This document shows positions 14,901 through 44,354 of a stretch of DNA of 64,000 nucleotides, piece after piece. Where the stretch lies: positions 21,216-85,215 of the forward strand of contig CAYMOC010000001.1 in NCBI GenBank assembly GCA_964391965.1. The letters run 5' to 3'. Every line of letters begins with the position of its first letter. Within the stretch, counting starts at the first letter, position 1. The DNA is from an uncultured Thermoplasmatales archaeon. GTDB taxonomy: Archaea; Thermoplasmatota; E2; DHVEG-1. The position numbers and the translations under genes were made by a program. The notes under the pieces are model-generated. The model was not told the origin of the DNA. It saw nothing but the letters and a program-made list of their open reading frames with translations, and did not search any database.

Positions 14901-17900
14901 CCCCGATAGCCCCTGAAAAACCCTCTATTTGAAATTCTTCACCAAAAACAATAGAACCTGTTGCTGATGCTTCAATTGGTAAATCAATTTCTTTACAAGA
15001 AGCAGCTAAACCTGGAGTAACAAGAGATACATCCTCAATACCAAAATCAAGTATAGCTTGTGCATCAATAGTAAGAACATTGTTTTCATTCTTATCAAAT
15101 AGGAATTCAATAAAACCAGCAGCACCAACTGACAATGAACAATAACCCAAAGAACCTGAAAAATTTGGTATAGATCCAACTAATTTTTCAATTTTAATAA
15201 TAGTAATATCTTCAGTTTCAGCATCCAATCTTAATTTAACTTTGTTTTTTGTTAAGAAAATTGTTGGATGAATATCACCATTTATTTCAATATTAGACCA
15301 GGTAACAAATATATTTTTATCAGGATAATTGAAAAGAAAATCTTTTAATGAAATATAGCCTGATAAATCAAGGTCAGCATTACCGGCACCATCTACGATT
15401 TCAAAAGAAGGTGCACCTGTCTCATTAAATTTGACTTTTACACCTAATAAACCACCATCAACATTAAAACCATAATCTAAATCTACGTTTAATAAACCTT
15501 TAATTGTCATAGAAGGGATAAGATTCCCAATTTTTTCTATATCAAAATCAAAATCTATACTTCCTTTTCCGTCACCATCAAGGTTTAAAAAGGCTAAAAC
15601 TTCTCCAGCCCAGATCTTACCCCCTCCAGAGTTGATCTGTTGCAAATTGGCTTCAAATTTACCCTCAAAAGAAAGGTTAGATATCTTTATTACATCTCTT
15701 ATGTGTAACTTAAGATTATCAACTATTATACTGGCATCGCCATCAATGGTGAAATATTTTGTTTCATCTAAAGTTTCCCAGGAGAAAACAAGGCCTTCAT
15801 TTTCACCTTGTAAGTAGAAAACACCAGATAATTCAAAAAGTAGTTCATCGCTTCCCTCTTTTTTTATGTTTAAATCTACAGAAATATAACCCTCACCGCT
15901 GATATTTATCCAACCCCACGACATATCAGGTGCAATTTCCCATGTAACATTTCTTATTGTTACATTCAACTCAAAGGTAAATTCTGTAAATCCCACAAGG
16001 TGAAGTTCCGGTTTTGCATAACTTAAATTGTTAAAGATAAAATAGAAACCAAAAAGTTCCAAATGACTTGAAAGTTCAATTTTTCCGCTTACTGATAAAC
16101 TGCCATTGTTATCATCTAAAAACGGATTGATCTCAAGATAGAAACCGCTGTTTGTAGCAGCAGTATTATCCCAAACAATCCTGTCTACATGTATCCTTGA
16201 ATCTACATTTTTTAAAGCAGGTAAAACAGAAGATAAATTAAGATTAGTTATTTCAAAATGAACATCCTTTAATACGATTTTGCTACCTGTACCGGATCTG
16301 CTTGTACTAACTGAATGATCGTTTTTATCTAAAACAAAAGAAAACTTTGAAGGAGAAGTTGAGCTTGTTATTTCAAGTGATTTCCATGAAAATTTTACTT
16401 CCATTGGATCTGGAGAATTATCATTTTTTTGTAGGAATGTTTTTTTATAATTAATATTAAGATTTGATATATTTACATATGTTGATTTTTCTTTTTCGAT
16501 TTCAAAAATTATTGAATTTTCTATAATATCTACGTTTTTAACTATCAAAGTTATGGATGCATTGTCAGAATAGTTTACACCATCATAACAACGTGCTTTG
16601 ACTATGACTCGGCCTATAGGTTTAGATGAGGAATCCCAGTTATAACTCCAACTTGTTGTACCGCTAAGATTCATCCAAGGTTCATCTGCTATTTGGATTT
16701 GAACAAGTTCAACTGGTCGACCGGATTCTCCTGGAGTTGTTGAACCGCTTATGGTGACTACACCTGAAACAGGTGGTATTACTGGATTTATTGATATAGT
16801 TGGTTTATCAATAATTTCATCATCGTCGTCATCGTCAGATCCGCCGGTTCCATTTATTTTTAGAGTTACGCTGTCTAAAGGTGAATAATATAATCCATCA
16901 TAACTACGAGCTTTTATAACATAATTTCCACCAGGATAATTTGTTGTATCCCATTCGATCATCCAATTATCCCAAGATGTACCTATCTTACTTGCTTTTT
17001 TCCAAGGGTTTTGACCGATTTTTACTTCGACATAATCTACAGAGTGTCCTTTTTGACCCGGGCTGCTTGTACCTTGAATTGTTATTGTGTTTTCAACAAC
17101 AGTTCCCTCAGTAGGAGCTGTAATATTCACATTTGGAACAGCTATCTCTGTTAAATCTAAATCAAAATCTAAACTATCAACTGTTAAACTGCATTCTTTT
17201 GAGACATATGTTTTTACTATTACTGAATCAAGTAGTTCATCCAATCCCAAGTCCCTTAATGGGAAAATTGGCATAAATGAAATAATGCCTTCTCTTGATG
17301 ATGAAGTAGTTCTTTCAAAAATTAGATTTTCTATACTAAATTCCATATCCATCATACTATGGCCTGGTATCATGTTTCCAGAATCCATGATATACACAGG
17401 TGCATCGTCTAACTCAATGTCAAGATTATGTAGAGTGAAACCTCCTCCGTTTTTAATCTCAAAGCCTAAACCAAGATCTATATCATCGACTATTATACCA
17501 TTTACAAAACCATTTAAGTCTAGGACAAAAGGTTCATTTGAGCTCTCTATATGGCCATTTCCTGAAGCATATAGAAAATCTGATTCGAAATTAAAATACG
17601 CTTCTAACTCTATAGGGTCTTTATTATCTATTTCAAATCTTCCTTTTAATAAATTAAAATATATAGTTATATCTAGATTACTTTGTGATTTTATTTGTAA
17701 TTCAAAAGAACTTTCGCTATCTAAAATACTAATTTCTGATCCGAAGGCGTTCAAAGAAAGGCCTTCTGTGTCTGAATAAAAACTGATTTCTGTTTCTCTT
17801 AACAATCCTATTCTGAACTGAAAATCTATACGGTTTGTTGAAGGAAGATCTGATAAATAAACTCCTATTTTTGGTTTAAACAAATCGTCATATAAACCAA

Positions 17901-19152
17901 TTTGGCTTATTGATTCTCCACCTGTGTTTAACTCAAGATATCCTTTTAACATAAAAGATGAAAAAATAAAAGAAACCTCTGAGGGGAGATATTTTACAAA
18001 AAAATAATTAAATTTTCTTTCATTAAATAATTCTTTATAAAACAGAATGTTAACGTTTTGACTGCTTGTTTTTTTATAACCTAATTCAATTTTTTCACCA
18101 GGCAATATTGATATTTTTGTTTTCCAGGCAAATTCTACATTTTTGGGGAGATCTTCAATGTAAAAGCCGACATTGACTGGTTTGCCATTTTTACTTATTC
18201 TTTCATGATGAAATTTTACATTTGTTTTTTCGTCTGTATTTATTGAAAATTCTCGATCATAAGGACCTATTGGGTCTTGTATTTTAATTGTTGATTTTAC
18301 ATAAGAATCATAGGTTGCATAAAAACTCCAACCTAGTGCATCACAAAATAAAGATAATTTATCGTCATCGTTACTACCAGGGTTTATTTGAAAAGAATGT
18401 CCTGGTTTTTTTGCGGGGTTTAATAGATTAGGTGCAAGTTTATATGTTACAGTGCAGCTACTTGGGATTTTTTCTTTGTTTTCAGAGATATATCCAAATT
18501 TTACATTTTGATCTGTTAGGTTTTTTATTAAAAAACCTGGGAAATTTAACTGAGCATATGCTCTTAGATATGCATTTTGATTTATACTGTTTCCACTTAG
18601 AAGTTCTATATTTAGATTAAAATTAATAGTAAAAGACAGGGTTTTAAAATCAAAACCAGGCAATACCATTACACGAGCAGAAACATCATCACCACCCGTT
18701 CCATCAACATCTACCTTAACAGTTTGAAACAAACCTAAACCAGTACTTGTTTCAACACCAGAATAATTAGTATGAAAAGTAAGCAGATCATCTAAAAAAC
18801 CAAGTAATCTATGATCTCTAGAACCATCTAACAAACGAAAAGAACTATCACTTTCATTATCATCATTTTTATTTCTATTAAAAAAATCTTTGATTTTTTC
18901 TTTAGCAGAAGAAAGTCTCTGACCAAGCCGGGTATCCTTAAAACCACCATTCAACAAACCAGAATTGTCTTGATCTTCTGAAGAGTTTGTATCTTCGATA
19001 TTTTCTTCTTTTTTAGTTTCAAATGTTGTTGCGTTTGCTGAAGAAGCTATTGTTGAAAATAGTAGGATAGTTATTATTGTTAGAACCAAAAGCTTTGTTA
19101 AATATATTTTTGAAGAACCCTGGCAGGTATTCTTCTTTAATAATTTTTGCAT
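8953..19152 (-). CDS. Giant secreted surface protein, paralog A, 3399 aa. It has a signal peptide, Ig-like repeats, a PKD domain, FN3-like domains, two internal Hint domains and a C-terminal Hint domain.
   Basis: This is a single 10.2 kb ORF in the track. The N-terminus has a hydrophobic segment ending ASSANA. A PKD motif YRWDFDYTG...GTYTLKLQV is present. The FN3-like pattern C.VWFEYGLT...KCT.YH.RA.ASN.AG recurs. Three Hint domains were identified (see the Hint-domain features at 8968-9363, 9892-10287 and 10876-11271 for the motif evidence). Confidence 0.85.
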   Translation of the reverse strand: MQKLLKKNTCQGSSKIYLTKLLVLTIITILLFSTIASSANATTFETKKEENIEDTNSSEDQDNSGLLNGGFKDTRLGQRLSSAKEKIKDFFNRNKNDDNESDSSFRLLDGSRDHRLLGFLDDLLTFHTNYSGVETSTGLGLFQTVKVDVDGTGGDDVSARVMVLPGFDFKTLSFTINFNLNIELLSGNSINQNAYLRAYAQLNFPGFLIKNLTDQNVKFGYISENKEKIPSSCTVTYKLAPNLLNPAKKPGHSFQINPGSNDDDKLSLFCDALGWSFYATYDSYVKSTIKIQDPIGPYDREFSINTDEKTNVKFHHERISKNGKPVNVGFYIEDLPKNVEFAWKTKISILPGEKIELGYKKTSSQNVNILFYKELFNERKFNYFFVKYLPSEVSFIFSSFMLKGYLELNTGGESISQIGLYDDLFKPKIGVYLSDLPSTNRIDFQFRIGLLRETEISFYSDTEGLSLNAFGSEISILDSESSFELQIKSQSNLDITIYFNLLKGRFEIDNKDPIELEAYFNFESDFLYASGNGHIESSNEPFVLDLNGFVNGIIVDDIDLGLGFEIKNGGGFTLHNLDIELDDAPVYIMDSGNMIPGHSMMDMEFSIENLIFERTTSSSREGIISFMPIFPLRDLGLDELLDSVIVKTYVSKECSLTVDSLDFDLDLTEIAVPNVNITAPTEGTVVENTITIQGTSSPGQKGHSVDYVEVKIGQNPWKKASKIGTSWDNWMIEWDTTNYPGGNYVIKARSYDGLYYSPLDSVTLKINGTGGSDDDDDDEIIDKPTISINPVIPPVSGVVTISGSTTPGESGRPVELVQIQIADEPWMNLSGTTSWSYNWDSSSKPIGRVIVKARCYDGVNYSDNASITLIVKNVDIIENSIIFEIEKEKSTYVNISNLNINYKKTFLQKNDNSPDPMEVKFSWKSLEITSSTSPSKFSFVLDKNDHSVSTSRSGTGSKIVLKDVHFEITNLNLSSVLPALKNVDSRIHVDRIVWDNTAATNSGFYLEINPFLDDNNGSLSVSGKIELSSHLELFGFYFIFNNLSYAKPELHLVGFTEFTFELNVTIRNVTWEIAPDMSWGWINISGEGYISVDLNIKKEGSDELLFELSGVFYLQGENEGLVFSWETLDETKYFTIDGDASIIVDNLKLHIRDVIKISNLSFEGKFEANLQQINSGGGKIWAGEVLAFLNLDGDGKGSIDFDFDIEKIGNLIPSMTIKGLLNVDLDYGFNVDGGLLGVKVKFNETGAPSFEIVDGAGNADLDLSGYISLKDFLFNYPDKNIFVTWSNIEINGDIHPTIFLTKNKVKLRLDAETEDITIIKIEKLVGSIPNFSGSLGYCSLSVGAAGFIEFLFDKNENNVLTIDAQAILDFGIEDVSLVTPGLAASCKEIDLPIEASATGSIVFGEEFQIEGFSGAIGVSGRIHIVGLSIKSPQISVYLSALYIYGNLNIAGEDQVIQVSGYAGGYLHISGGGLISTPAFGTLYVGGTLQLSGAISGSATLGIGNDNGGFSVNSVSGYLSGAVLADVSMTKGLTLFTEEQIDTFCSNTLNTIGNYINNITDSYDLSSFINSVINLIETGFVEPNSKDIIVTASLDIGVQGFIYFTYTPGSLYVAGNLNGGATVKITGLELTFYDRWNIAALQEITLQGSLNFAASTSSKYLEIGIDGEVLGVDLIEFNDLQTNTKIDVDLGVAQFEDNSIRMEWTGALKNLKPDSLKFIFGGGQFTLGYIKINVNNEEVFYMDVGTISISGSIDIDEISYSDSKIDGFHFISNLDASVGIMEITIQDVFSFSLSLNGQLVGDLGAYWEKDDEGTLDSVTVTSNSGLNLEINIEIELNGNHVYLSIPSISAGDFTIEWKKGSTLSIHSQSGFQGSIIQLKVNNDVIFSAFDFGISPNSDITIEWDYMDGNAKCVKATTSAGFDGYLSTIQLNSQTILDLNVEMSSGSSLEYRDWHTFHEGLDWSKDFYFDGSITVTVCRITLNGEVVDISGTLTGYNARIARGGLDSDSNLIYLIQSSDSISTVSGFSFSAQNVDIAGSVDWNGDLRSYFDMIWHDGQGTGKSFYFQSNNGFDGTTTLDVGNFHMIGSRTLGSGDCSIAFDLDGGSSDIKQFYMDTTPNSFIQHISFEFWYGANDAIKILDVGNIWANGKWIHWDFIRIPPYFDHGGEIGSGEEQPVIEATNDGGASWDQIWPYGNQKPNADIGGPYSADVGETVTFDASNSSDPDGDVLQYRWDFDYTGPLDVFWDTGWLDSPTVDHIYDTEGTYTLKLQVREKDTILHKKDNDSTTVNVAVLSEFNIELIYDGVDQGEDLFEGDDFEIYVTDSFSGDPVEDAFVTYQSYDDGVLIGEDTGYTDSSGSVYFVAHEVSDDNPFHENDCLVTVEKSGYVDDEIYFIVEKAVGRVRGYVKEHGSQDPIGDVLVVATNQDTSEEFSTYTSDGTGGHLVGFYDLYLPAGTYDIEASKTGYANGNLYDISVENGDNTLLDTIYLVSAPTVSTLNPGNIEQTTAYLRGNLGSMGGDNSCEVWFEYGLTENYGSSTDPVTVYSTGNFYKQIMGLTKCTAYHYRACASNNAGTSHGNDFSFNTDADPPVIDSVSHTSVTDSSAYLTGKLLDDGGEASTCWLILEQESCFVAGTLISMADGSLKSIEDIQVGDSVKSYDESSGSMVDSVVGHVFVHDAVEMGDYYLVINNRLRVTPDHPLFVNGDWVDADSVVVGDSLLDVSGESIEVLSVDRVFEPVVTYNLEVEGTHTYFADGVLVHNKPGPIQYNCGDHYDPYTFSHTFYNLQPSTPYKWTASADNSGGSSNTDWMYFTTDSDLDKPTLSTQNAASVTQNSAFLRGYLSDMGGANSCNVWFEYGLTTSYGYSTSPISVSSTGYFNTQVTGLSKCTTYHFRAWASNDAGSNHGNDEDFTTDSDKPVIDSVSHTSVTDSSAYLTGKLLDDGGEASTCWLILEQESCFVAGTLISMADGSLKSIEDIQVGDSVKSYDESSGSMVDSVVGHVFVHDAVEMGDYYLVINNRLRVTPDHPLFVNGDWVDADSVVVGDSLLDVSGESIEVLSVDRVFEPVVTYNLEVEGTHTYFADGVLVHNKPGPIQYNCGDHYDPYTFSHTFYNLQPSTPYKWTASADNSGGSSNTDWMYFTTDSDGSPPYFTTDIDTKTVSEQLAISLFNVDAYDADGDSLYFRVKYQYTYYNLDSYYDVIEDDSQVTISAKQYDSNSVRFKVEPKVDSGDQDEYYDIIVHVTDEQGDWYDDYEDFTIHISDDGTCLLSGSKITMAGNAKKNIEDVKIGDMVKSYDDKTGEITTSVVTSIHHHPKEEMTDYYMIINNILKITPNHRIYVNEEWTPAGKVKIDDYLQDIEGEKQRIFSIERIYEKVPTYNFEVNTTHSYYAEELLVHNGGTK
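8968..9363 (-). other. C-terminal Hint (Hedgehog/intein-like) domain of giant protein A. It runs from CLLSGSKIT to ELLVHN and is followed only by GGTK-stop.
   Basis: The Cys codon is at 9361-9363 and the Asn codon at 8968-8970. Block B TPNH and block G HN are present. There is no homing-endonuclease insert. Confidence 0.7.
9892..10287 (-). other. Internal Hint domain, copy 2 (C-proximal). It is inserted within an FN3-like domain of giant protein A.
   Basis: The domain runs CFVAGTLISMADGS...RVTPDHPLFV...GVLVHN. Its Cys is at 10285-10287 and its HN at 9892-9897. The residue after the HN is Lys (KPGP), so a canonical extein +1 nucleophile is absent. Confidence 0.7.
10876..11271 (-). other. Internal Hint domain, copy 1. 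Its amino-acid sequence is identical to copy 2.
   Basis: The DNA and protein match 9892-10287 exactly, offset by 984 bp. Confidence 0.7.
18600..18965. repeat. Dispersed repeat, copy 2. It is the counterpart of 8150-8520.
   Basis: Near-identical DNA. Confidence 0.8.
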
Positions 19153-30764: not shown

Positions 30765-32960
30765 ATGAGGAAGATAGTGCCACTTCTAGTGGTAGGAATA
30801 TTTTTAGCAAGTGCTTTTGTAACCATAGGAAACGCAGAACCAATAGAAAAACAAAAATTTGAAAAAATAGAAATTGAAAAAATATTTTCAAACATGCAAA
30901 TAGAAAAAAAAGAAGAATATCTAACTATCGAATTTTCACAAGCAAATTCCTATCTAATAGAAACAGGTAAACCAGTACTACCCACATATGAACAAACATT
31001 TACCTTTCCACTAAACACAAAAATAAAAAATGTTGAAGTCAAACAAAGTAACATTCAAAAAACATTTTTAGAAGATGAATTAAAAACTGCACCCGCTCCA
31101 CAAATCGCAAATAACATACAAACAGAAAAAAAGAATTATGAAAAGATAGAACTACCCACTATTTACCCAGAGAAAAACTTTGAATACACGATTGGAAGAG
31201 GAATCGATAACGACGAAAGATGCTTGTTTTTAAAAATAACAGTTTATCCAGTAAGATACCAGTCTAATGAAAAAATTTTAGAATGTGCTGAAAACATTGA
31301 AATAAATGTTGAATATGAAGAACCAAAAAAGATTGCTTCTTTTGAGGATGATTATTCCTTTTTGATTATAACACCAGGAGAATATTCTCCAGATTTATCT
31401 GATCTGGTTGATCATAAAAACAGTCGAGGAATCTCTACTAAAGTTGTAGTATTATCTGAAATTTATAACAGTTTTTATTTCCCAACAGAGGGAAGAGATG
31501 AAATTGAAGAAATCAAATATTTTATTAAAAATGCTTATGATAACTGGGGTACAACAGATGTAATGCTTATAGGTGGAGCTGAAGATTTTCCAGCAAGAGA
31601 AGCCCATATCCTTACATTTGAAGAAGATGATGAAATCTTTCTTACAGATCTTTATTATGCAGATCTTTACGACGAAAATAACAATTTCCAAACATGGGAC
31701 ACTAATGAAAACGATGTTTTTGCAGAATACGACTGGGAGGACAATTTTGATGAAATGGATCTTTACCCAGACATTAGAATCGGTAGAATCGCATGTATAA
31801 ACAGCGAACAAGTAGAGACCGTTGTTGAAAAAATCATTGATTATGAGAACAACGAACCATGGACTTCAAACTGGTTTAACAACATTATGGTAATCGGAGG
31901 AGACACCTTTCCAAATGAAAACGATGAAGGACCCGATATTGATGAAGGAGAATTTGTTAATCAAGCTGTTTTAGATATAATGGATGGATTTTTAGCCGAT
32001 AAAATATGGTATTCAAACGGTAGACTAGGAGGTTTTAATCCAACAGGTGTTGAAACGATAAATAATGGATTCCATGAAGGACGTGGTTTTGTACATTGGT
32101 CTGGGCATGGAGCACCAAACGTATGGACTACTTATCCTCATAATGGAAATAGACAAACACTACCATCTCCTTTAGGTAAGTATACTAATACTTATATTAG
32201 TGATTTAGAAAATGGTGAAAAACTACCTATAGCAATAAACGGTGGTTGCAGTCTTGGCAAATATGTTGCTAATGAAAACTGTTTCGCCTGGGCTTATCTT
32301 TCTAACCCAGATGGTGGAGGAATAGCCTCTACTGGATGTACAGGTCTTGGTTGGATATATGGTGGAGAATATGCTTCAGAAGGACTAGTTGAAGGAATGG
32401 CCGTTGGCATGTTTCAGGCATACAAAGATGGTGCTTTAACATTCGGAAGAATGTGGTCTGATGCAATAAATGAATACATCTATAGAAATATGAATTCAGG
32501 AGATTATAAAACTCTTCTCGAATGGCAGCCATTTGGAGATCCAACCCTTCAGATACAAAAAGAATCCCAACCGCCTCTGAAACCAGAAACACCAACAGGT
32601 GAAAACGAAGGTACTATTGATCAAGAATACACATATACTACTGTTACAACTGACCCGGAAGGAGATGATATATATTATCGATTCGATTGGGGAGATGAAA
32701 CATACAGTGAATGGCTTGGACCTTATAATTCCGGGGAAACTTGTGACGATGGTAAAAAAACCTGGGATTCAAGAGGAAGCTATGATGTAAGAGTACAGGC
32801 AAAAGATACTAACGGTAAACTAAGTGAGTGGTCTGAATCTAAACCTGTAACGATGCCGGTAAACAATGACTTTGAAAGGTTTCATTGGTTGAATAATCTT
32901 TTAGAAAAAATACCATTACTCAAATTGTTGTTTGAGTTTATACAGAATATGATTTTCTAA
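30765..32960 (+). CDS. Secreted peptidase C25 (gingipain-like) with a C-terminal PKD-like module
   Basis: It has a signal peptide. FLIITPGEYSPDLSDLVDHKNSRGISTKVVVLSEI matches the C25 N-terminal block. The His motif is HWSGHGAPNVW and the Cys motif INGGCSLGKY. The PKD-like block is YYRFDWGDETYSEWLGPYNSG...VRVQAKDTNGKLSEWS. Confidence 0.65.
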   Translation: MRKIVPLLVVGIFLASAFVTIGNAEPIEKQKFEKIEIEKIFSNMQIEKKEEYLTIEFSQANSYLIETGKPVLPTYEQTFTFPLNTKIKNVEVKQSNIQKTFLEDELKTAPAPQIANNIQTEKKNYEKIELPTIYPEKNFEYTIGRGIDNDERCLFLKITVYPVRYQSNEKILECAENIEINVEYEEPKKIASFEDDYSFLIITPGEYSPDLSDLVDHKNSRGISTKVVVLSEIYNSFYFPTEGRDEIEEIKYFIKNAYDNWGTTDVMLIGGAEDFPAREAHILTFEEDDEIFLTDLYYADLYDENNNFQTWDTNENDVFAEYDWEDNFDEMDLYPDIRIGRIACINSEQVETVVEKIIDYENNEPWTSNWFNNIMVIGGDTFPNENDEGPDIDEGEFVNQAVLDIMDGFLADKIWYSNGRLGGFNPTGVETINNGFHEGRGFVHWSGHGAPNVWTTYPHNGNRQTLPSPLGKYTNTYISDLENGEKLPIAINGGCSLGKYVANENCFAWAYLSNPDGGGIASTGCTGLGWIYGGEYASEGLVEGMAVGMFQAYKDGALTFGRMWSDAINEYIYRNMNSGDYKTLLEWQPFGDPTLQIQKESQPPLKPETPTGENEGTIDQEYTYTTVTTDPEGDDIYYRFDWGDETYSEWLGPYNSGETCDDGKKTWDSRGSYDVRVQAKDTNGKLSEWSESKPVTMPVNNDFERFHWLNNLLEKIPLLKLLFEFIQNMIF

Positions 32961-33264: not shown

Positions 33265-34704
33265 TTATTTCATTATACCATATGCTCTTTTAGTTTCCTC
33301 TTTATGTTCCTCATACAAGGATTCTATATCATTTCGCATGCCTGGAGGATAACCATCAGGGAAATTTAAACATCCATGACAAAAATCAAAACCAATTGCT
33401 TCTTTCAAATCATCAATACTTGTATATGCAAGAGAATCAGCTCCAATGTCTTTGTTGATTTCATCCCAGGTTTTAATCTCTCCGTTTTTCTTACTTGCTA
33501 TAAACTCTTTTTTACTTCGCATATCAATTCCAAGATAACAAGGAGCAATCAAAGGCGGGCAACCAATTCTTACATGAACCTCTTTTGCTCCGGCATCTCG
33601 AACACCTTCTACAAGTTTTCGCATGTTGGTACCTCTTACAATTGAATCATCTACAAGGACTACACGTTTGTCAGATAGAACAGATCTAATATATGACAAT
33701 CCTTCCTCAACAACTTGATCACGGCTTTCCTGGGTTTGTTGTATAAAACTACGTTCATCCTTGTCTTTTATCAAACCTTCATCCAGAGGAATACCTGATT
33801 CACGAGAGAAACCAACTGCATACCGTCGACCTGACTCTGGAACTGGAACAACGATGTCTGCATCAACGGGATGATGTTTTGCAAGAAGACGGCCAAGATC
33901 AACCCTGGTGTTATGAACTGAACGATCATTTATACGAGAATCTGGTTTTGCAAAATAAACAAATTCAAACATACAAGGAGTCTCAGGTTTTTTAACTACT
34001 TGTTTTTCATGTATATCTCCCTCAGGATCAATTATAACAATTGAACCACCAGGTATATCTTTAATATATTCAAAACCTATTTTTTTAAAAACACGTGTTT
34101 CACTGGTGAGACAATACATTCCATTTTTTTTACCTAAAACCAAAGGTCGAACTTTAAATGGATCAGTTATTGCAAAAAGATAAGGATATCTTCCCGAATC
34201 AGCAAGGAAAATTGCTGAATAACTTCCTTTAGCAACCTTCATTACCTTCTTACAGGCATCAAGAATATTTTCAGGACTAAGTTCTTTCTTATATAATTGA
34301 TCAGCCATAGGTAGAAGAAGACATTGAATATCACAATCCGTACGAGGCGTACGATCAGTTTTATCACCAATTTCTCTACAGTTGTAAATATTACCATTAT
34401 GAACTGATGCAAGAAACGGGTTAACAAGATATTCAGGTTGAGCATTTTTTTTCAACGAATCAAGATCATCTAATCCAGCTGTTGAATATCTAGTATGACC
34501 GATTCCAACATTCCCAGGTGTATTTATCTTTTTTTCATCATCAAAAACTTCACGTACAAGGCCTGCATCTTTGTAAACATGAATATTTCCATCATAGGTT
34601 AATTTACCAGTAGAAGATTGCCCACGGTGCTGAATCGAAAAAAGACTATGATATATAAAACTTGAAACTGGTTTATTACCGATAATTCCAACTATTCCAC
34701 ACAT
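33265..34704 (-). CDS. purF: Amidophosphoribosyltransferase
   Basis: MCGIVGI is the Ntn Cys. The PRTase motif VVLVDDSIVRGTNM is present. The C-terminal Cys cluster is typical of PurF. Confidence 0.9.
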   Translation of the reverse strand: MCGIVGIIGNKPVSSFIYHSLFSIQHRGQSSTGKLTYDGNIHVYKDAGLVREVFDDEKKINTPGNVGIGHTRYSTAGLDDLDSLKKNAQPEYLVNPFLASVHNGNIYNCREIGDKTDRTPRTDCDIQCLLLPMADQLYKKELSPENILDACKKVMKVAKGSYSAIFLADSGRYPYLFAITDPFKVRPLVLGKKNGMYCLTSETRVFKKIGFEYIKDIPGGSIVIIDPEGDIHEKQVVKKPETPCMFEFVYFAKPDSRINDRSVHNTRVDLGRLLAKHHPVDADIVVPVPESGRRYAVGFSRESGIPLDEGLIKDKDERSFIQQTQESRDQVVEEGLSYIRSVLSDKRVVLVDDSIVRGTNMRKLVEGVRDAGAKEVHVRIGCPPLIAPCYLGIDMRSKKEFIASKKNGEIKTWDEINKDIGADSLAYTSIDDLKEAIGFDFCHGCLNFPDGYPPGMRNDIESLYEEHKEETKRAYGIMK

Positions 34705-34796
34705 ATCAAAAACAGGAATGATGAGGGGTTATTTAACGCTTTTTTATTAAAAAATAAAATGTTTTATATCATAAATTAAAAAATTAGAGAAAAACT

Positions 34797-36044
34797 TTAG
34801 ATATCTTCCCATTCTTTTAGAACAGATTCCCATTTGAAGTTTTCAATTGCATCAATTTGTTCTATTTTTTTAAGAATTTTTTCATAGCCTTTTACAAGAG
34901 CTCGTGTTCTAATTTTTACAATAAAGTCGTATTTTCCAGCTACCGCAGTAACCCTGGTTATACCATTTATATTCCATATTTTTTTCATGGTTTCTTCAAT
35001 ATCATACCCAGGTTTTATGTTGATAAAAATATAGGCTTTAACCAAGTTTAATGCAAAGGATGCTATCCCTAGAATCATTATTATTACTCCTATTCCTTTG
35101 ATTAAAAGCATAGTTGGATCCATTGAGAATGGTTCGATTATTCCAAGATATGCTATAAACAAAGATACAGGTATAGAGAAAATAATTATTGAGGATCTGA
35201 CTGCTTGTACGATACTTGCTTTTCCGATACCAAGAGCCCGTATGTAAAATACAAAAGCAAAAAAAGCTCCTACCGCAATAATTGCTGCCCAGCTAAATTG
35301 ATTAACTGAAGCATTTATTCCAGCTATTAAATGATTTGTGTTAAGAATCGTATCATAGATTAGAACCAAAATTATTGTAAAAAAACAGGCAAATATTACA
35401 TTCCAGAAACGAATATTAATTGAATCATTTGATTTTTCTTTTATTTTCATTCTTTTAAGTTTACGTTGATAGATAGTAAGAACAACCCATGAGGGGTTAA
35501 TAACAAGAAAGACTATAGCTAAAGCTGTAAGATTTAAACTTCCACTTAGACTAATTGATCCGAGGATAGCGCCAAATGTTACAATGAGTATCGATTGTAT
35601 CTCAGATAAAGTAGGTGCATCTTTTTCGCTAACTGATTCGACTAATACAAGATACAAAATAACTGCTTGAGTGAAAGGAAGAACAACCGAGGGGTCTTCT
35701 ATAAGAGTAAATAAAGCAAAATATCCAACTGTGTATGCTGCATTTCCAAAACCTGATAACAGTTGTGGTTTAATTTCTTCTTTTTTTATTAGACGAATTT
35801 TTTCAAAAGACGGATCTGCCATTCTTGCTCCAAGACTTTTGCCTTTGATTTTTAAAGAAAAAACGAGTCCAAAAAGTAATGTTATTGGGATTCCTAAGAT
35901 AAAGATTGATAATCCTAAAGCCCAGGGATCTGTAATAAAAAGCTTACTGACTGATGCATCAACACCAGCATTTATAGCTGATATTATTGCTGTTGAAAAA
36001 GCAAGAACGTAAAACAAGTATTTTTTACGTATTCTTATTTTCAT
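34797..36044 (-). CDS. EamA/DMT-type permease fused to a C-terminal Lrp/AsnC-type RAM (ligand-binding) domain
   Basis: There are ~10 TM helices in two halves. The C-terminal ~75 aa are ITRVTAVAGKYDFIVKIRTR...IENFKWES. This resembles the AsnC C-terminal domain and the downstream stand-alone RAM protein. Confidence 0.55.
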   Translation of the reverse strand: MKIRIRKKYLFYVLAFSTAIISAINAGVDASVSKLFITDPWALGLSIFILGIPITLLFGLVFSLKIKGKSLGARMADPSFEKIRLIKKEEIKPQLLSGFGNAAYTVGYFALFTLIEDPSVVLPFTQAVILYLVLVESVSEKDAPTLSEIQSILIVTFGAILGSISLSGSLNLTALAIVFLVINPSWVVLTIYQRKLKRMKIKEKSNDSINIRFWNVIFACFFTIILVLIYDTILNTNHLIAGINASVNQFSWAAIIAVGAFFAFVFYIRALGIGKASIVQAVRSSIIIFSIPVSLFIAYLGIIEPFSMDPTMLLIKGIGVIIMILGIASFALNLVKAYIFINIKPGYDIEETMKKIWNINGITRVTAVAGKYDFIVKIRTRALVKGYEKILKKIEQIDAIENFKWESVLKEWEDI

Positions 36045-36304
36045 GCTGATACTTCTTTTTCAATTACCTGTGTTGTTGTTCTTTGTACTCCTTTGATTTT
36101 CTGGATTTTATTAGTAACATTAAGTAGATTACTAAGATTTTTTACTTGAACTCTTAGTACTATATCATATTCTCCGGCTACTACAGAAATTTTTGCAAGA
36201 TTTTCTACTTTTCTCATTTGAGATATTGCTTGGCTTGAATCACCTGGTTCCATGCTTACTAACATGTATGCGTTTATCATTTTTTTTCCTCTGTTTAGTT
36301 TCAA
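36041..36304 (-). CDS. Stand-alone RAM-domain (Lrp/AsnC C-terminal) protein
   Basis: NAYMLVSMEPGD...VAGEYDIVLRVQVKNLSNL is the AsnC_trans_reg pattern. There is a 4-bp overlap with the permease gene. Confidence 0.6.
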   Translation of the reverse strand: MKLNRGKKMINAYMLVSMEPGDSSQAISQMRKVENLAKISVVAGEYDIVLRVQVKNLSNLLNVTNKIQKIKGVQRTTTQVIEKEVSA

Positions 36305-36417
36305 CCCGGATTATGAGGCATTATTTAAAACTAACTGATTATGCTATATTTTTATGAAAAATTTTGTTAAAAATATATAAAAAAGATATTTTTTGTTATA
36401 AAAAATAAAAAAATTTT

Positions 36418-37203
36418 TTATTTTTTGTGGGATTTGAATATATCGTATGCTTCTTTTGGTGTTGCTTTCTTGTGAACAATCGAATTCACTGCCTTCATCA
36501 TACCTACAGGATCAGTACTTTGGAAAATATTCCGACCCATGTCAACACCAATAGCTCCTGCTTGTATTGCATCATAAGCCATTTTAAGTGCATCTTTTTC
36601 TGGTTGTTTCTTGCCACCAGCAATAACAATTGGTACAGGGCAGGTATCAACAACGCGTTCAAAGTTTTCACAAAAATAAGTTTTAACTACATGAGCGCCA
36701 AGTTCGGCAGCCATACGACTTGCAAGACTTAAATATTTAGCATCTTTACCAAGACCTCGTCCTACTGCAGTCACTGCAAGAACTGGTATTCCATATCTTT
36801 CGCATTTGTCAATATATTCGGTCATTCCCAGGAGTGTATCTCTTTCATATGGTTGACCTACAAGTATTGAAAAAGCAACTCCTGAAACATTGAGTCTTAT
36901 TGCATCCTCGATATCTACAACAGTTCCCTCATGTAACAGGTTTTCTTTGTTTAGAATACTTGTTCCGCCTGAAACACGCAGTACTATCGGTATTTTGGTT
37001 TCAGGCACTATATAATTTCTAAGTGATCCACGTGTAAGCATTAGAGTATCAGCATATCTTATCAAAGGTTTAGTAACCTCAGTTATATTCTCAAGACCTG
37101 TTGTAGGGCCCATAAAATATCCATGATCAACCGCTAGCATTACAGTATGTCCATCTTTTGGATTAATTATTTTTGAAAGTCTATTTTTCATACCCCAGTT
37201 CAT
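36418..37203 (-). CDS. DhnA-family class I aldolase (archaeal fructose-bisphosphate aldolase or ADH synthase AroA')
   Basis: LAVDHGYFMGP, ADTLMLTRG, VKTYF and VIAGG match archaeal class I FBA. Confidence 0.75.
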   Translation of the reverse strand: MNWGMKNRLSKIINPKDGHTVMLAVDHGYFMGPTTGLENITEVTKPLIRYADTLMLTRGSLRNYIVPETKIPIVLRVSGGTSILNKENLLHEGTVVDIEDAIRLNVSGVAFSILVGQPYERDTLLGMTEYIDKCERYGIPVLAVTAVGRGLGKDAKYLSLASRMAAELGAHVVKTYFCENFERVVDTCPVPIVIAGGKKQPEKDALKMAYDAIQAGAIGVDMGRNIFQSTDPVGMMKAVNSIVHKKATPKEAYDIFKSHKK

Positions 37204-37370: not shown

Positions 37371-38810
37371 ATGTCTGTAATTGAAAATTTAGAACCAAAG
37401 CTTTTGTGGAACCAGTTTGATGAGATTAGAAAGATTCCACGGTGCAGCAAACACGAAGAAAAGATAAGGGAATATGTAATTGATTTTGCTAAAAATCATG
37501 GCCTAGAATATAAAACAGATGATGCAGGAAATGTAGTAATAAAAAAACCTGCAAGCTCTGGTATGGAGGACAAACCCACAGTTGTGCTTCAAGGGCATAT
37601 GGATATGGTATGTGAAAAAAATAGTGATGTTGATTTTGATTTTTCTAAAGACCCGATTCAGCTTCAGAAAGATGGAGATAAAATCCTAGCTAAGGGTACA
37701 ACTCTTGGAGCTGACAACGGTATGGGCCTGGCAACTTCTCTTGCAATTATGGAAGATAAAGACTTAAAATTAGGTCCAATCGAAGCGCTTTTTACAGTTG
37801 ATGAAGAAACTGGTCTCACGGGTGCTTTTGCTCTAGATGAAAATATGCTCACAGGTAAAATGCTATTTAATCTAGATAGTGAAGACTGGGGAGTTCTAAC
37901 TGTAGGTTGCGCAGGTGGTGGAAACTCAGATATAACTCTTCCTATCAAAAAAGAAAAAGCCTCTAAAAAAGGCCTAAAGATTAATATCTCAGGTCTTAGA
38001 GGAGGTCATTCTGGAGTCGATATTCATGAACAACGTGCAAATGCAGTAAAAATTCTTACAAGAATCCTTTTTAAAGCAGCTGAAAAATATGATATACAGA
38101 TTTCATCAATTATGGGTGGAGATAAACATAATGCGATACCACGTGAAGCAAACGCAGAAATTGCTGTTGATGAATCAAAGAAAAAAGACCTTGAAAAAAT
38201 GATAAAAGAAGAAGAAAAACAGATTCTTTTTGAAATTAAACCAATAGATCCCGGTTTTAAAGTAAAAATTTCTGATGTTGATGTGGAATCTGTTCTAGAT
38301 AGCAACTCTCAGACCAAAATTTTGAATCTTTTAAATGGTCTTCCACATGGTGTATACAAAATGAGCTATGACATAGAAGGACTTGTTCAGACTTCTACGA
38401 ATCTAGCAAAGGTTACAACAGAGGATGACAAAGCAAATGTTCTTTTAAGCTCTAGAAGTTCTATTATGTCTGAACTTGAATACTTGCGCGATCAAATAAG
38501 ATCTATTGCAAAACTTACAGGAGCTGAAGTTGAAGAAGAAGAGCCATACCCAGGTTGGAAACCTGATATGGATTCAGAAATTTTAAAAATTTCAAAAAAA
38601 GTCTATAAAGACAGGTATGGTAAAGAACCAAAAGTTGAAGCTATTCATGCAGGCCTTGAATGTGGTATTATTGGTGAAAAATACCCAGGTATGGAAAAGA
38701 TTAGCATTGGACCTACAATAAAGTATCCTCATTCACCAGAAGAACAAGTTCATATAAGTACAGTTGAAAAATTCTATGATTATTTGTTAGCGATATTAAA
38801 AGAGGTATAA
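37371..38810 (+). CDS. pepD: Aminoacyl-histidine (Xaa-His) dipeptidase, M20C
   Basis: The N-terminus LWNQF..I..IPR.S..E and the HMDMV...DNG..DEETG pattern fit PepD. The length is 479 aa. Confidence 0.8.
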   Translation: MSVIENLEPKLLWNQFDEIRKIPRCSKHEEKIREYVIDFAKNHGLEYKTDDAGNVVIKKPASSGMEDKPTVVLQGHMDMVCEKNSDVDFDFSKDPIQLQKDGDKILAKGTTLGADNGMGLATSLAIMEDKDLKLGPIEALFTVDEETGLTGAFALDENMLTGKMLFNLDSEDWGVLTVGCAGGGNSDITLPIKKEKASKKGLKINISGLRGGHSGVDIHEQRANAVKILTRILFKAAEKYDIQISSIMGGDKHNAIPREANAEIAVDESKKKDLEKMIKEEEKQILFEIKPIDPGFKVKISDVDVESVLDSNSQTKILNLLNGLPHGVYKMSYDIEGLVQTSTNLAKVTTEDDKANVLLSSRSSIMSELEYLRDQIRSIAKLTGAEVEEEEPYPGWKPDMDSEILKISKKVYKDRYGKEPKVEAIHAGLECGIIGEKYPGMEKISIGPTIKYPHSPEEQVHISTVEKFYDYLLAILKEV

Positions 38811-38928: not shown

Positions 38929-40350
38929 ATGAGATTTAGAATTAAAAAAACAGTTATAGTTTTTATTGCAATATTATTATCATCATCTGTCTTAAGTGTC
39001 GGAGAAAAGATTAATGAATATGAATATTCTGAGTCTTTTGCAATTACCATCTATTCTTGTAATTATTTAGAAAATGTGCAAGAATTCGCAAATCATTCAT
39101 TTCTAATAAAAGTAAATTCTACATATACAACTTCAGAACCAAGCTTTATTATACATAATAGATACAATTACTCTGACTTTTCAATAGATCTTGATCCATG
39201 CGGATATAGATATTTAAACATAACTTTTGAAGTATATGAGATAGTTGATGAAGAATACTTTCCCTGTGACCTTGACAAAGACGAGGGTATCGGATTTGGG
39301 GAGATAATATATGATTCATATACAGGTCACTGGAACGGAGATGATGAAATAAACGATGACAGCGGATATGGTCGTTTGAATGGCTGTGATGATGGAAGTT
39401 TTTATGAATTTGAAAGAGATTTTGAACTATGTTTCTCAATAGATGTAATAGATCCTGATAACGACAATATACCTAGATGGATCGAAGAAAATGTATATTT
39501 TACAGACCCGCTTTCTGACGATTCTCAAAGCGATGAAGACAAAGACGATATCCCCCTATTTTGGGAACACAAATGGGGCTATGATCCATTGACTTGGGAT
39601 GATCATCACACCCTCGATCCAGATAAAGATGGGCTTTCCAATTATGAAGAATATCTTACCTCACAATGGAAATCAGATCCATTTCGTCAAGACATTTTTC
39701 TCGAACTTGATCAAATGGAAATAGGACCCAATGGCGAAGGTGCATATGTTCCTAAAAGTTCTCTCATACAGGTCGGTCAAACATATGCTAAAAGAAACAT
39801 AGTTTTTCATGTAGATGACGGATGCATGGATGGTGGAGAAATTCTACCATATAAAGAAACTATTTGGATGGGAGACGGAAGAAAATATTATAGAGAACAT
39901 TTCTTAAATAACGATCCTGAAAACTGGAGAAGAGGTGTTTTTAGATATGTATTATTTGTTTACAATCATCTACCAATTAGAGGTATGGAATTTCCTGGAG
40001 AAAAAAATATAATATTCTTTTTTTTACCTGGTTTAAACTCTTTTGTGTTATCAACTTCGATTTATGAGATGACAGATAGATCACCTGAAGAATCAACTGC
40101 TTTTATGATTCTTCACGAGCTAGGTCACACTTTAGGAATGTGTATGGGGAGGCCACTTGGCTGCGATAACCAACTAATGAGATTTAAATTTAGTTTGCAA
40201 AGGATACTTTTCAAAAATTATAAATCTGTAATGAACTACAAATACGCATATTCAATACTTGATTATTCAGATGGAAGTCACGGTATAGGAGATTATGATG
40301 ATTGGGGTAATTTGGATTTAACCTATTTTCAGCCAAGAGGAGCAAGATAA
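38929..40350 (+). CDS. Secreted HExxH zinc-metalloprotease-like protein with a thrombospondin-type-3-like Ca-binding motif
   Basis: It has a signal peptide. HELGHTLGM is an HExxH motif. DPDKDGLSNYEEY fits DxDxDG. The protein is acidic and Cys-containing. Confidence 0.4.
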   Translation: MRFRIKKTVIVFIAILLSSSVLSVGEKINEYEYSESFAITIYSCNYLENVQEFANHSFLIKVNSTYTTSEPSFIIHNRYNYSDFSIDLDPCGYRYLNITFEVYEIVDEEYFPCDLDKDEGIGFGEIIYDSYTGHWNGDDEINDDSGYGRLNGCDDGSFYEFERDFELCFSIDVIDPDNDNIPRWIEENVYFTDPLSDDSQSDEDKDDIPLFWEHKWGYDPLTWDDHHTLDPDKDGLSNYEEYLTSQWKSDPFRQDIFLELDQMEIGPNGEGAYVPKSSLIQVGQTYAKRNIVFHVDDGCMDGGEILPYKETIWMGDGRKYYREHFLNNDPENWRRGVFRYVLFVYNHLPIRGMEFPGEKNIIFFFLPGLNSFVLSTSIYEMTDRSPEESTAFMILHELGHTLGMCMGRPLGCDNQLMRFKFSLQRILFKNYKSVMNYKYAYSILDYSDGSHGIGDYDDWGNLDLTYFQPRGAR

Positions 40351-43637: not shown

Positions 43638-44354
43638 ATGATGAAAAGAAATCTATTATTGATAAGTAATTCAACATTACACGGCAGTGGTTATTTAGAT
43701 CATTGCGCTGAAGAAATAAAGCAGTTTTTAAAAAATAAAAAAAGTATACTTTTTATTCCCTATGCTCGACCTAGCGGCATGACCCATGAAGAATACACAA
43801 AGATTGCTAAAGAACGTTTTAAAAAAATAGGAATAGAATTAACAGGCATACATGAATATTCTGATTCTAAAAAAGCAGTCAGAAAGGCTGAAGCAATCTT
43901 TATTGGCGGTGGAAATACCTTTGTTCTTCTTTCACAACTTTATAAAAAAGATGTTTTAGATACAATTAGAGAAAGAGTGTCAGAAGGTATGCCATATATT
44001 GGTACTAGTGCCGGATCTAATGTTGCCTGTAAAAACATAAAAAATACAAATGATATGCCGATAATGTACCCTCCAAGTTTTAATGGATTAAACCTTGTAC
44101 CATTCAACATAAATCCCCATTATCTTGACCCCGACCCAAACTCAACACATAAAGGTGAAACGAGAGAAACAAGGATTAAAGAATTTCATTTTTATAATAG
44201 TGAATATGTCGTTGGACTTAGAGAAGGTTGCATGTTATATATTGATAATGACAAAATTATTTTGAAAGGTAGCACAGGAGCACGTGTATTTAAAAATGAA
44301 AAAGAACCTGTTGAATACAAACCTGGCGACGATATGAGTTTTCTTATGAAATAA
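43638..44354 (+). CDS. pepE: Peptidase S51 (dipeptidase E-like)
   Basis: LLLISNS, FIGGGNTF and GTSAGS match the S51 signature. Confidence 0.75.
   Translation: MMKRNLLLISNSTLHGSGYLDHCAEEIKQFLKNKKSILFIPYARPSGMTHEEYTKIAKERFKKIGIELTGIHEYSDSKKAVRKAEAIFIGGGNTFVLLSQLYKKDVLDTIRERVSEGMPYIGTSAGSNVACKNIKNTNDMPIMYPPSFNGLNLVPFNINPHYLDPDPNSTHKGETRETRIKEFHFYNSEYVVGLREGCMLYIDNDKIILKGSTGARVFKNEKEPVEYKPGDDMSFLMK

Follow-up and report, generated by a model that had tools for sequence, protein, structure and literature searches.

Amino-acid sensors, transporters and their proposed coupling

Nearly all that is known of RAM domains concerns their role as amino-acid sensors in Lrp/AsnC transcription factors, and the physiological role of those RAM proteins that stand alone has been described as unclear (PMC2995911). 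In this study we describe a two-gene locus of an uncultured Thermoplasmatales archaeon, located on contig CAYMOC010000001.1 of assembly GCA_964391965.1 within a stretch of 64,000 nucleotides (nt) which was analysed as a whole and is referred to as the window. The locus encodes a membrane protein of 415 amino acids (aa) that ends in a RAM domain, here termed the fusion protein, and a small stand-alone RAM protein. Our preferred reading, to which we assign a probability of roughly one half, is that the two RAM units form a two-part cytoplasmic sensor which allosterically gates an amino-acid transporter.

On the sensory side, the closest described systems are the RAM and Lrp/AsnC (FFRP) proteins, including DM1/PHS023 (2cvi, 2e1a), STS042 (2zbc), TTHA0845 (2djw), FL11 (2cyy) and Grp/ST1022. 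The ligand sites of RAM proteins are located at dimer-dimer interfaces, and conservation of the pocket is poor in those RAM proteins that are believed not to bind amino acids (PMC2995911). In glutamine-bound Grp, the amino group of the ligand contacts D102 of the G99-x-x-D102 loop and its carboxylate contacts the backbone of G99 together with the side chains of T132 and T134 of a neighbouring dimer, two threonines whose high conservation in the family has been noted (PMC2504300). Both RAM units of the pair belong to the same Pfam family as these proteins, the fused tail shares their beta-alpha-beta-beta-alpha-beta fold, and the small protein has contacts of the G-x-x-D and T-x-T type identical to those of Grp. 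Unlike the Lrp/AsnC regulators, neither protein of the pair has a helix-turn-helix (HTH), and unlike the known RAM proteins, one unit forms a single chain with a ten-helix membrane protein and carries aromatic residues at the T-x-T position. Whereas DM1 has a DNA-binding partner in FL11, the partner in this case is a transporter.

On the transport side, the membrane part of the fusion protein resembles ten-helix DMT/EamA transporters, above all bacterial exporters and uniporters of amino acids, of which YddG (5i20) is an example, in its predicted fold, in its helix number and in the cytoplasmic position of both termini. YddG is a uniporter that carries aromatic and other amino acids. Unlike transporters of this type, the fusion protein has a C-terminal sensor domain, and fused proteins have strongly conserved cytoplasmic loops which are absent from their unfused relatives.

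Small soluble metabolite sensors that are encoded together with a transporter and act at its cytoplasmic face are familiar from AmtB-GlnK, which recalls the pair described here. This system differs in that its sensor is a PII trimer, that no sensor is fused to AmtB, and that covalent modification and 2-oxoglutarate/ATP are involved.

The logic of a fused sensor has a precedent in the methionine ABC importer MetNI, in which a fused C2 domain mediates trans-inhibition (PMC10710835). The likeness would be one of principle, as in MetNI a small fused cytoplasmic domain halts the transport cycle when it has bound the amino acid where two domains meet (PMC10710835). MetNI belongs to the primary ABC importers and has a non-RAM domain, two identical fused copies of which pair without any soluble subunit, whereas the present pair joins a secondary DMT-fold carrier to a heterologous sensor encoded by two genes. 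The same building blocks are also linked in the genome of Pseudomonas aeruginosa, where PA2577 and PA2576 form an Lrp/AsnC and EamA gene pair, and the transcriptional control of EamA genes by Lrp/AsnC regulators is thus known (PMC8707732). In that pair the sensor has a DNA-binding domain and controls the transcription of the transporter gene; in the locus described here the sensor is attached to the transporter and has no DNA-binding domain. A 2023 review of transporter control by fused domains contains no RAM, AsnC or DMT example (PMC10710835), and a search for literature on a RAM or AsnC domain on a transporter or permease, whose coverage left out most subscription journals, found nothing. 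The parts, namely RAM domains, stand-alone RAM proteins and DMT/EamA carriers, are therefore known, as is the logic of fused sensors, and a RAM domain on a transporter is undescribed in the literature searched.

Architecture of the fusion protein

The fusion gene (34797..36044, minus strand) encodes two structural units. Residues 1-335 (35040..36044, minus strand) form a membrane domain of ten transmembrane (TM) helices with the fold of the DMT superfamily, and residues 336-415 (34800..35039, minus strand) form a RAM domain, which follows directly after TM10. We regard this architecture, a DMT-fold permease with a cytoplasmic RAM tail, as close to certain. In an AlphaFold2 (AF2) model based on 54 homologues (mean pLDDT 83, pTM 0.80, ten TM helices), the helix of residues 310-334 runs without a linker straight into the tail, for which DSSP gives strand 336-343, helix 349-357, strands 362-367 and 374-378, helix 380-395 and strand 400-408. 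When the model was compared with the Protein Data Bank (PDB) by Foldseek, ranks 1-38 were all DMT transporters (E between 9e-6 and 3e-3; TM-scores of about 0.53-0.80 per target, in most cases at least 0.6), among them LicB, the triose-phosphate translocator TPT, SLC35B1, Vrg4, CST (a transporter of CMP-sialic acid), YddG and PfCRT, at sequence identities of 9-16%. After rank 38 the tail was matched by Lrp/AsnC proteins and stand-alone RAM proteins, including 2znz, 1ri7, 2djw and 2cvi, with a root-mean-square deviation of 2.4-3.2 Å over 78-80 columns.

The original prediction had named the membrane part a DMT/EamA-type permease, and profile searches with this protein do not bear out the label directly. 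The EamA family of Pfam (PF00892) has no match in the 415-aa protein even at E<=1, neither Pfam nor NCBIfam holds a family for residues 1-335, and a sequence search of the PDB with a membrane-domain profile returned only a spurious cbb3 oxidase (E 0.68). Ten unfused relatives likewise have no EamA match at E<=0.1 and no match to any other transporter family of Pfam or NCBIfam. EamA is matched, however, by 18 of 44 diverse family members, with a best E of 2.5e-9. This branch of the membrane domain is too divergent for the EamA profile, and because of the predicted fold and the matches in these relatives, the label is right at the level of fold and superfamily, with a transitive link to EamA. 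The fusion protein is very likely a transporter. The match to the DMT fold also implies two five-helix repeats, as described for TPT; an hhalign comparison of the N- and C-terminal halves aligned TM3-5 with TM8-10 in register, although at E 0.089 and a probability below 1%. The predicted cytoplasmic loops of the 415-aa protein contain 15 lysine and arginine residues and the external loops contain none. From this positive-inside count, the N- and C-terminus should both be cytoplasmic in the modelled topology, and the RAM tail would consequently face the cytoplasm.

The assignment of the tail is supported at several levels. The Pfam family PF01037 (AsnC_trans_reg, RAM) matches residues 340-410 with 29.2 bits (E 8.9e-7) against a gathering cut-off of 25, which agrees with the earlier claim that the protein ends in a RAM domain, and the same family is matched by 27 of the 44 diverse family members. 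Conservation is higher in the tail than in the membrane domain, with mean majority-residue frequencies of 0.80 and 0.73, respectively. That the fusion might result from a frameshift, an assembly chimera or a wrongly called open reading frame (ORF), or that the RAM match might have arisen by chance, was considered, since in this one protein the Pfam score exceeds the threshold by only 4 bits. A profile of the 44 family members, however, finds solved stand-alone RAM proteins at E 1.8e-12, in line with the RAM fold of the AF2 model and with the Foldseek matches. In a set of 81 homologous loci, which comprises 80 species loci and the window, the ORF is uninterrupted at 409-425 aa in 78 independently assembled cases, and the three shorter ones lie at contig ends. 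Among the best 120 of 721 relatives found in a protein database, all of them at least 61% identical and from Thermoplasmatota assemblies, 119 are full length at 412-416 aa and one is partial. An artefact or a chance match thus has a negligible probability, and the frameshift that could have undone the original prediction is absent from these sequences.

Public annotation of these proteins is of little help. The name DNA-binding Lrp family transcriptional regulator, which JGI gives to several database entries (P0001, P0007 and others), is a propagated mis-annotation, because residues 1-335 form ten TM helices and an HTH is missing; a second public name, Lrp/AsnC ligand binding domain-containing protein, is uninformative. 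Pfam detects no HTH family in the fusion protein or in the small protein, and the LysM, AsnC and Lrp models of NCBIfam match with their C-terminal halves only, far below cut-off. A reading of the locus as an Lrp-type transcription factor was accordingly ruled out.

Linkage of the stand-alone RAM gene to the fusion

The second gene of the locus (36041..36304, minus strand, for the long ORF) shares the four nucleotides ATGA (36041..36044, minus strand) with the fusion gene, so that its stop codon overlaps the start codon of the latter. Its product matches PF01037 with 43.5 bits (E 3e-11), and its best sequence matches in the PDB are FL11 (2cyy) and STS042 (2zbc). Of the two profiles proposed earlier for checking the pair, AsnC_trans_reg was thus found in both proteins and EamA was missing from the larger one. 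A RAM gene overlapping the permease gene had been predicted correctly, but it had been placed downstream, whereas on the minus strand it lies upstream (5') of the permease gene.

This arrangement is strongly conserved. The small RAM gene is located directly upstream of the fusion in 77 of 78 evaluable loci, with the ATGA overlap in 66 of these, a gap of 12-13 nt in ten and a gap of 9 nt in one; two loci of the set are truncated where their contigs stop. When one genome was scanned for each species, relatives turned up in 148 species, and every one of these is labelled Thermoplasmatota or carries a related name. An exhaustive search with the membrane-domain profile recovered 86 representative clusters among 1.84 billion, in which fused representatives of about 396-426 aa extend down to E of about 1e-28 and the E-values of unfused representatives, which have 319-352 aa, range from 1e-13 to 1e-5. 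The distant fused copies occur in Asgard archaea and Thermoproteota, and the named members of these clusters are assigned to Baldrarchaeia, Odinarchaeota, Thorarchaeota, Hermodarchaeota and a "Thermoprotei archaeon". A small RAM gene adjoins the fusion in six of six distant fused relatives (Asgard archaea, Thermoproteota and others), and no RAM gene was found near the four unfused relatives that were inspected. On a Thorarchaeota contig (L100:3501-5017) the small gene, of 81 aa, lies downstream of the fusion, and the pair has therefore survived a change of gene order. The proposed check of phylogenetic co-occurrence thus came out in favour of the pair: architecture and linkage are strongly supported, and the linkage extends over three phyla of archaea. 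Among the fused genes examined, no neighbour other than the small RAM gene is universal, and the presence of this gene tracks that of the tail, as one would expect of two RAM units that act together. A Rosetta-stone protein of the order DMT-RAM-RAM, expected at about 490-500 aa, is absent from the 86 representatives. In some assemblies two paralogues of the fusion are present, as in L026 and L030 of one metagenome-assembled genome and L025 and L079 of another.

Gene linkage would be equally compatible with a relay to transcription, in which the transporter anchors or releases the small RAM protein depending on flux or on the amino-acid level, and the freed protein joins Lrp-type regulators and alters gene expression. 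The stand-alone RAM protein DM1 forms hetero-octamers with FL11 in vitro, and such mixing has been proposed as the reason for the existence of stand-alone RAM proteins (PMC2995911). Across the 81 loci, however, the pair has no full-length Lrp gene as a consistent neighbour. The small gene is found beside fused transporters only, which points to a dedicated partner, and from the ATGA overlap one would expect co-assembly in stoichiometric amounts more than a messenger that diffuses. We therefore hold a transcriptional relay to be quite improbable.

Ligand-contact motifs in the two RAM units

The small protein retains each canonical contact to the backbone of an amino-acid ligand, in the form of the motifs G44-E-Y-D47 and T76-T-T78 (87-aa numbering). 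All 78 of the 78 loci have G44, D47, T76 and T78, within a family pattern that reads A-G-[ED]-[YF]-D and T-T-T, and the small-protein partners of six other lineages keep G-x-[FY]-D and T-x-T as well, giving seven of seven lineages in all. Since all these contacts are kept, the sequence evidence favours the small RAM protein as a real ligand sensor. The fused tail presents another picture. Its G370-x-Y-D373 motif is kept (G370 in 80/80 and D373 in 79/80 loci), but at the T-x-T position, as defined by aligning F403 and W405 of the tail to T132 and T134 of Grp, the protein of the window has F403-K-W405 and the family has [YF]-K-W, the tryptophan being present in 79 of 79 loci. Among the distant fused tails T-x-T is kept in only two of about 27 and is degenerate in the rest. 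By fold and profile the tail is a RAM domain with a non-canonical half-site.

Judged by these residues, the small subunit is a complete canonical sensor and the fused tail contributes a half-site, and we infer that functional sites would be formed either jointly by a small and a fused subunit or among small subunits that have docked on the tail. Hetero-assembly fits this asymmetry, as the T-x-T contacts are kept in the one unit and replaced in the other, and a mixed RAM assembly has a precedent in the hetero-octamers of DM1 with FL11 (PMC2995911).

The same asymmetry has to be weighed against a purely structural role, in which the tail and the small protein would oligomerise or stabilise the transporter, for example as a dimer under TM5 and TM10, without any switching by a ligand. 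RAM domains are described as oligomerisation modules (PMC2995911), TM5 and TM10 constitute the crystal dimer interface in a DMT transporter (10.1101/169169), and the loss of T-x-T from the tail would be in keeping with such a role. It is hard to explain without ligand binding, however, that the small subunit shows no variation at the four canonical ligand contacts in 78 loci and seven lineages, and G-x-x-D is also kept in the fused tail. For these reasons we consider an exclusively structural function improbable.

The membrane domain bears a signature specific to fused proteins. In a comparison of 25 fused with 17 unfused representatives, nine positions of this domain are conserved in at least 84% of the former and in at most 35% of the latter. 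Seven of the nine are located on the cytoplasmic face, which holds 39% of all positions (binomial estimate of the chance probability about 0.02): P144 and E148 in the loop between TM4 and TM5, R212 at the start of TM7, and Y267, R269, L271 and K275 at the end of TM8 and in the loop between TM8 and TM9. Positions conserved in both groups, e.g., D29, G72, D77, Y131, G158, D207 and G319, are spread evenly. A surface for docking of the RAM units on the cytoplasmic side would fit these fusion-specific residues.

Gene neighbourhood and possible substrates

Hints to the substrate can be drawn from the gene context, which fits amino-acid traffic through the peptidases of the window, the aminopeptidase downstream of many fusions and links to trpS. 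In the usual order of Thermoplasmatota, a gene for a C25 peptidase and, on the opposite strand, thiC precede the small RAM gene and the fusion gene, which are followed by genes for an M29 aminopeptidase and purF, a small gene on the opposite strand and a gene for an S-adenosylmethionine (SAM) hydroxide adenosyltransferase. The M29 gene lies directly downstream of the fusion in 40 of 81 loci and is missing from the window. The window contains a gingipain-like C25 peptidase with a PKD domain (30765-32960), an M20 dipeptidase (37371-38810) and an S51 dipeptidase (43638-44354), and this richness in peptidases fits a protein-degrading sediment archaeon.

The links to trpS come from more distant relatives. 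Three of the four unfused relatives, which come from different clusters (L084:2959-5041, L093:1774-3841 and L096:2455-4511; 326-346 aa, no Pfam family), follow trpS immediately, overlapping it by 4 nt or separated from it by no more than 10 nt, and look like an undescribed trpS-linked transporter. In a fused relative (L088:2603-7075), trpS lies upstream of the small RAM gene with a gap of 56 nt and a second trpS follows beyond the fusion. The trpS genes of these loci score 196-249 bits with TIGR00233 (cut-off 176.75). These arrangements hint that the membrane domain handles tryptophan or a similar compound. The two tryptophan--tRNA ligases of L088, which flank the pair within 4.5 kb, are differing paralogues of 367 and 370 aa, and near the unfused trpS-linked loci a BtpA-family gene is found in two cases and a TrpD-like gene in one.

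The same neighbourhoods could be taken to indicate that an identical architecture serves a substrate or effector other than a proteinogenic amino acid, for instance 2-oxoglutarate, a precursor of purines or thiamine, or a SAM-related compound. Within the 81 loci, purF follows the pair on the same strand in 56, thiC precedes it in 24, and the SAM hydroxide adenosyltransferase gene is nearby in 33. A response of DM1 to 2-oxoglutarate has been reported, and certain RAM proteins of archaea may have ligands other than amino acids (PMC2995911). DMT transporters as a superfamily carry many classes of substrates. On the other hand, the G-x-x-D and T-x-T motifs contact the alpha-amino and alpha-carboxylate groups of amino acids, trpS is adjacent to the unit in four relatives, and synteny within one order may simply be inherited, as the neighbours are not shared by the distant fused relatives. 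We see only a small chance that such metabolites, rather than amino acids, are involved. The conserved neighbours purF, M29, thiC, C25 and the SAM-hydrolase-type genes were also rejected as a guide to the substrate, since they are not kept in the distant fused relatives.

A putative two-part sensor acting on a membrane carrier

In the mechanism which we propose, the two genes would encode a single membrane machine. The large protein would be a secondary transporter of the DMT fold, with an amino acid or a closely derived compound as its most likely substrate, and the small RAM subunit would be produced from the same transcript in matching amounts and would join the tethered RAM domain at the transporter's cytoplasmic face. 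The RAM-RAM interfaces, to which the small subunit can contribute the Thr-x-Thr half-site and either subunit the Gly-x-x-Asp loop, would bind an amino acid from the cytoplasm. Binding of the ligand would alter the assembly of the RAM units or their docking on the cytoplasmic loops, and transport could thereby be switched on or off within seconds while transcription remains unchanged. Two directions of control are conceivable. Efflux might open as peptide breakdown causes amino acids to build up, a safety valve that would suit a peptide-degrading cell with cytoplasmic aminopeptidases, or uptake might be shut by trans-inhibition, which would suit the trpS-linked relatives. Physical contact between the RAM units, the nature of ligand and substrate, and the direction and sign of the regulation are the parts of this mechanism that we infer.

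A more detailed version can be formulated, in which the RAM units build an asymmetric, membrane-anchored hetero-oligomer with composite sites made of the Gly-x-x-Asp of the tail and the Thr-x-Thr of the soluble subunit. The amino acid would clamp the soluble subunit onto the transporter and so switch transport, and the whole would be an ancient module of Thermoplasmatota, Asgard archaea and Thermoproteota. We put this version forward tentatively, as it is possible but rather unlikely to be correct.

Several observations weigh against the proposed gating by amino acids. With the loss of the T-x-T contacts, which are described as highly conserved in Lrp/AsnC proteins, the fused RAM domain may not itself bind a ligand. 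The helix that bears it, TM10, is peripheral in solved DMT structures, as is TM5, and both lie outside the gating helices and form a crystal dimer interface (TPT preprint 10.1101/169169). Since TM10 takes no part in gating, any coupling would have to run via the cytoplasmic loops, and control through these loops or through dimerisation would be more likely than control by movement of TM10. Fused and unfused proteins form separate clades, and the fusion-specific residues could thus reflect other differences between them. One locus (L033) has no small gene upstream of the fusion, the preceding 300 nt (4700-5010) being non-coding. Finally, the trpS hint comes from distant relatives only, and the flanking of the main clade by purF, thiC and a SAM hydrolase-type gene could mean a substrate other than an amino acid.

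If the proposed gating is correct, a RAM sensor acts directly on a membrane carrier, and at least one class of stand-alone RAM proteins gains a testable role. Should the composite sites exist as well, this would be the first defined physiological role of stand-alone RAM proteins and one outside transcription. The post-translational "plug-on" controls of transporters would likewise be extended by a new regulatory domain in a two-subunit version, and within the literature searched this would be the first such control found for the DMT superfamily. The hosts are uncultured sediment archaea rich in peptidase genes, to whose physiology a fast amino-acid valve would be central.

Transcription signals and the start of the small gene

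The region upstream of the small gene contains several conserved elements. A TATA-like box of the two-gene unit, TTTTAAATAA, is read at 36321..36330 (minus strand) as a putative archaeal promoter, and a TTTATATA-like box recurs about 45-50 nt upstream of the conserved small-gene ATG in most of 78 homologous loci. It is followed at the expected start of transcription by a conserved GC-rich box, CCGGGTTGA (36301..36309, minus strand), whose family consensus is about ATAT[TA][GC]CGG[CG]TGA and which stands within otherwise AT-rich spacers. The GC-richest hexamer lies 18-20 nt 3' of the TATA start in 43 of the 58 loci with a measured distance, and 18-22 nt in 47 of them, and the box could be a start-site region or an operator. 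A Shine-Dalgarno-like AGAGGA (36287..36292, minus strand) precedes the ATG at 36280 by 6 nt, and homologous loci have GGTG- or GGAG-like motifs at this position.

These elements bear on the length of the small protein. The 87 aa of the original prediction correspond to the long ORF from the TTG at 36304, and this ORF is indeed present, but the product most likely has 79 aa and starts at the ATG (36041..36280, minus strand). This start, Met9 in the 87-aa numbering, is used in 77 of 78 small-protein homologues, it follows the AGAGGA, and the TTG lies inside the conserved GC-rich box. The ATGA overlap and the conserved promoter before the small gene both fit a single transcript with coupled translation, and the pair is very probably expressed in this manner. 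Beyond the stop codon of the fusion gene, a T-rich spacer with several oligo-T runs (34705..34796, minus strand), which may act as a terminator, separates the pair from purF (33265..34704, minus strand). Scans of the window for tRNAs and with Rfam found three tRNAs, none of them near the locus, and no other match near it.

Other genes of the window

Three further genes of the window deserve a brief mention. A DeoC/LacD-family aldolase encoded just upstream of the pair (36418-37203, minus strand) matches the NCBIfam equivalog model for LsrF, 3-hydroxy-5-phosphonooxypentane-2,4-dione thiolase, with 387 bits (cut-off 297), while the archaeal ADH synthase models reach about 200 bits and remain below cut-off; LsrF as the best match is unexpected for an archaeon. 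A protein of 473 aa (38929-40350, plus strand) has no Pfam match and contains the motif HELGH, by which it may be a zinc metalloprotease, and in related contigs (L001:4050-5471) the small RAM gene is directly preceded by an ORF of 473 aa that likewise matches no Pfam family. A single ORF of 3399 aa (8953-19152, minus strand) is located in a region of higher G+C content and strong AT skew (10-12 kb).

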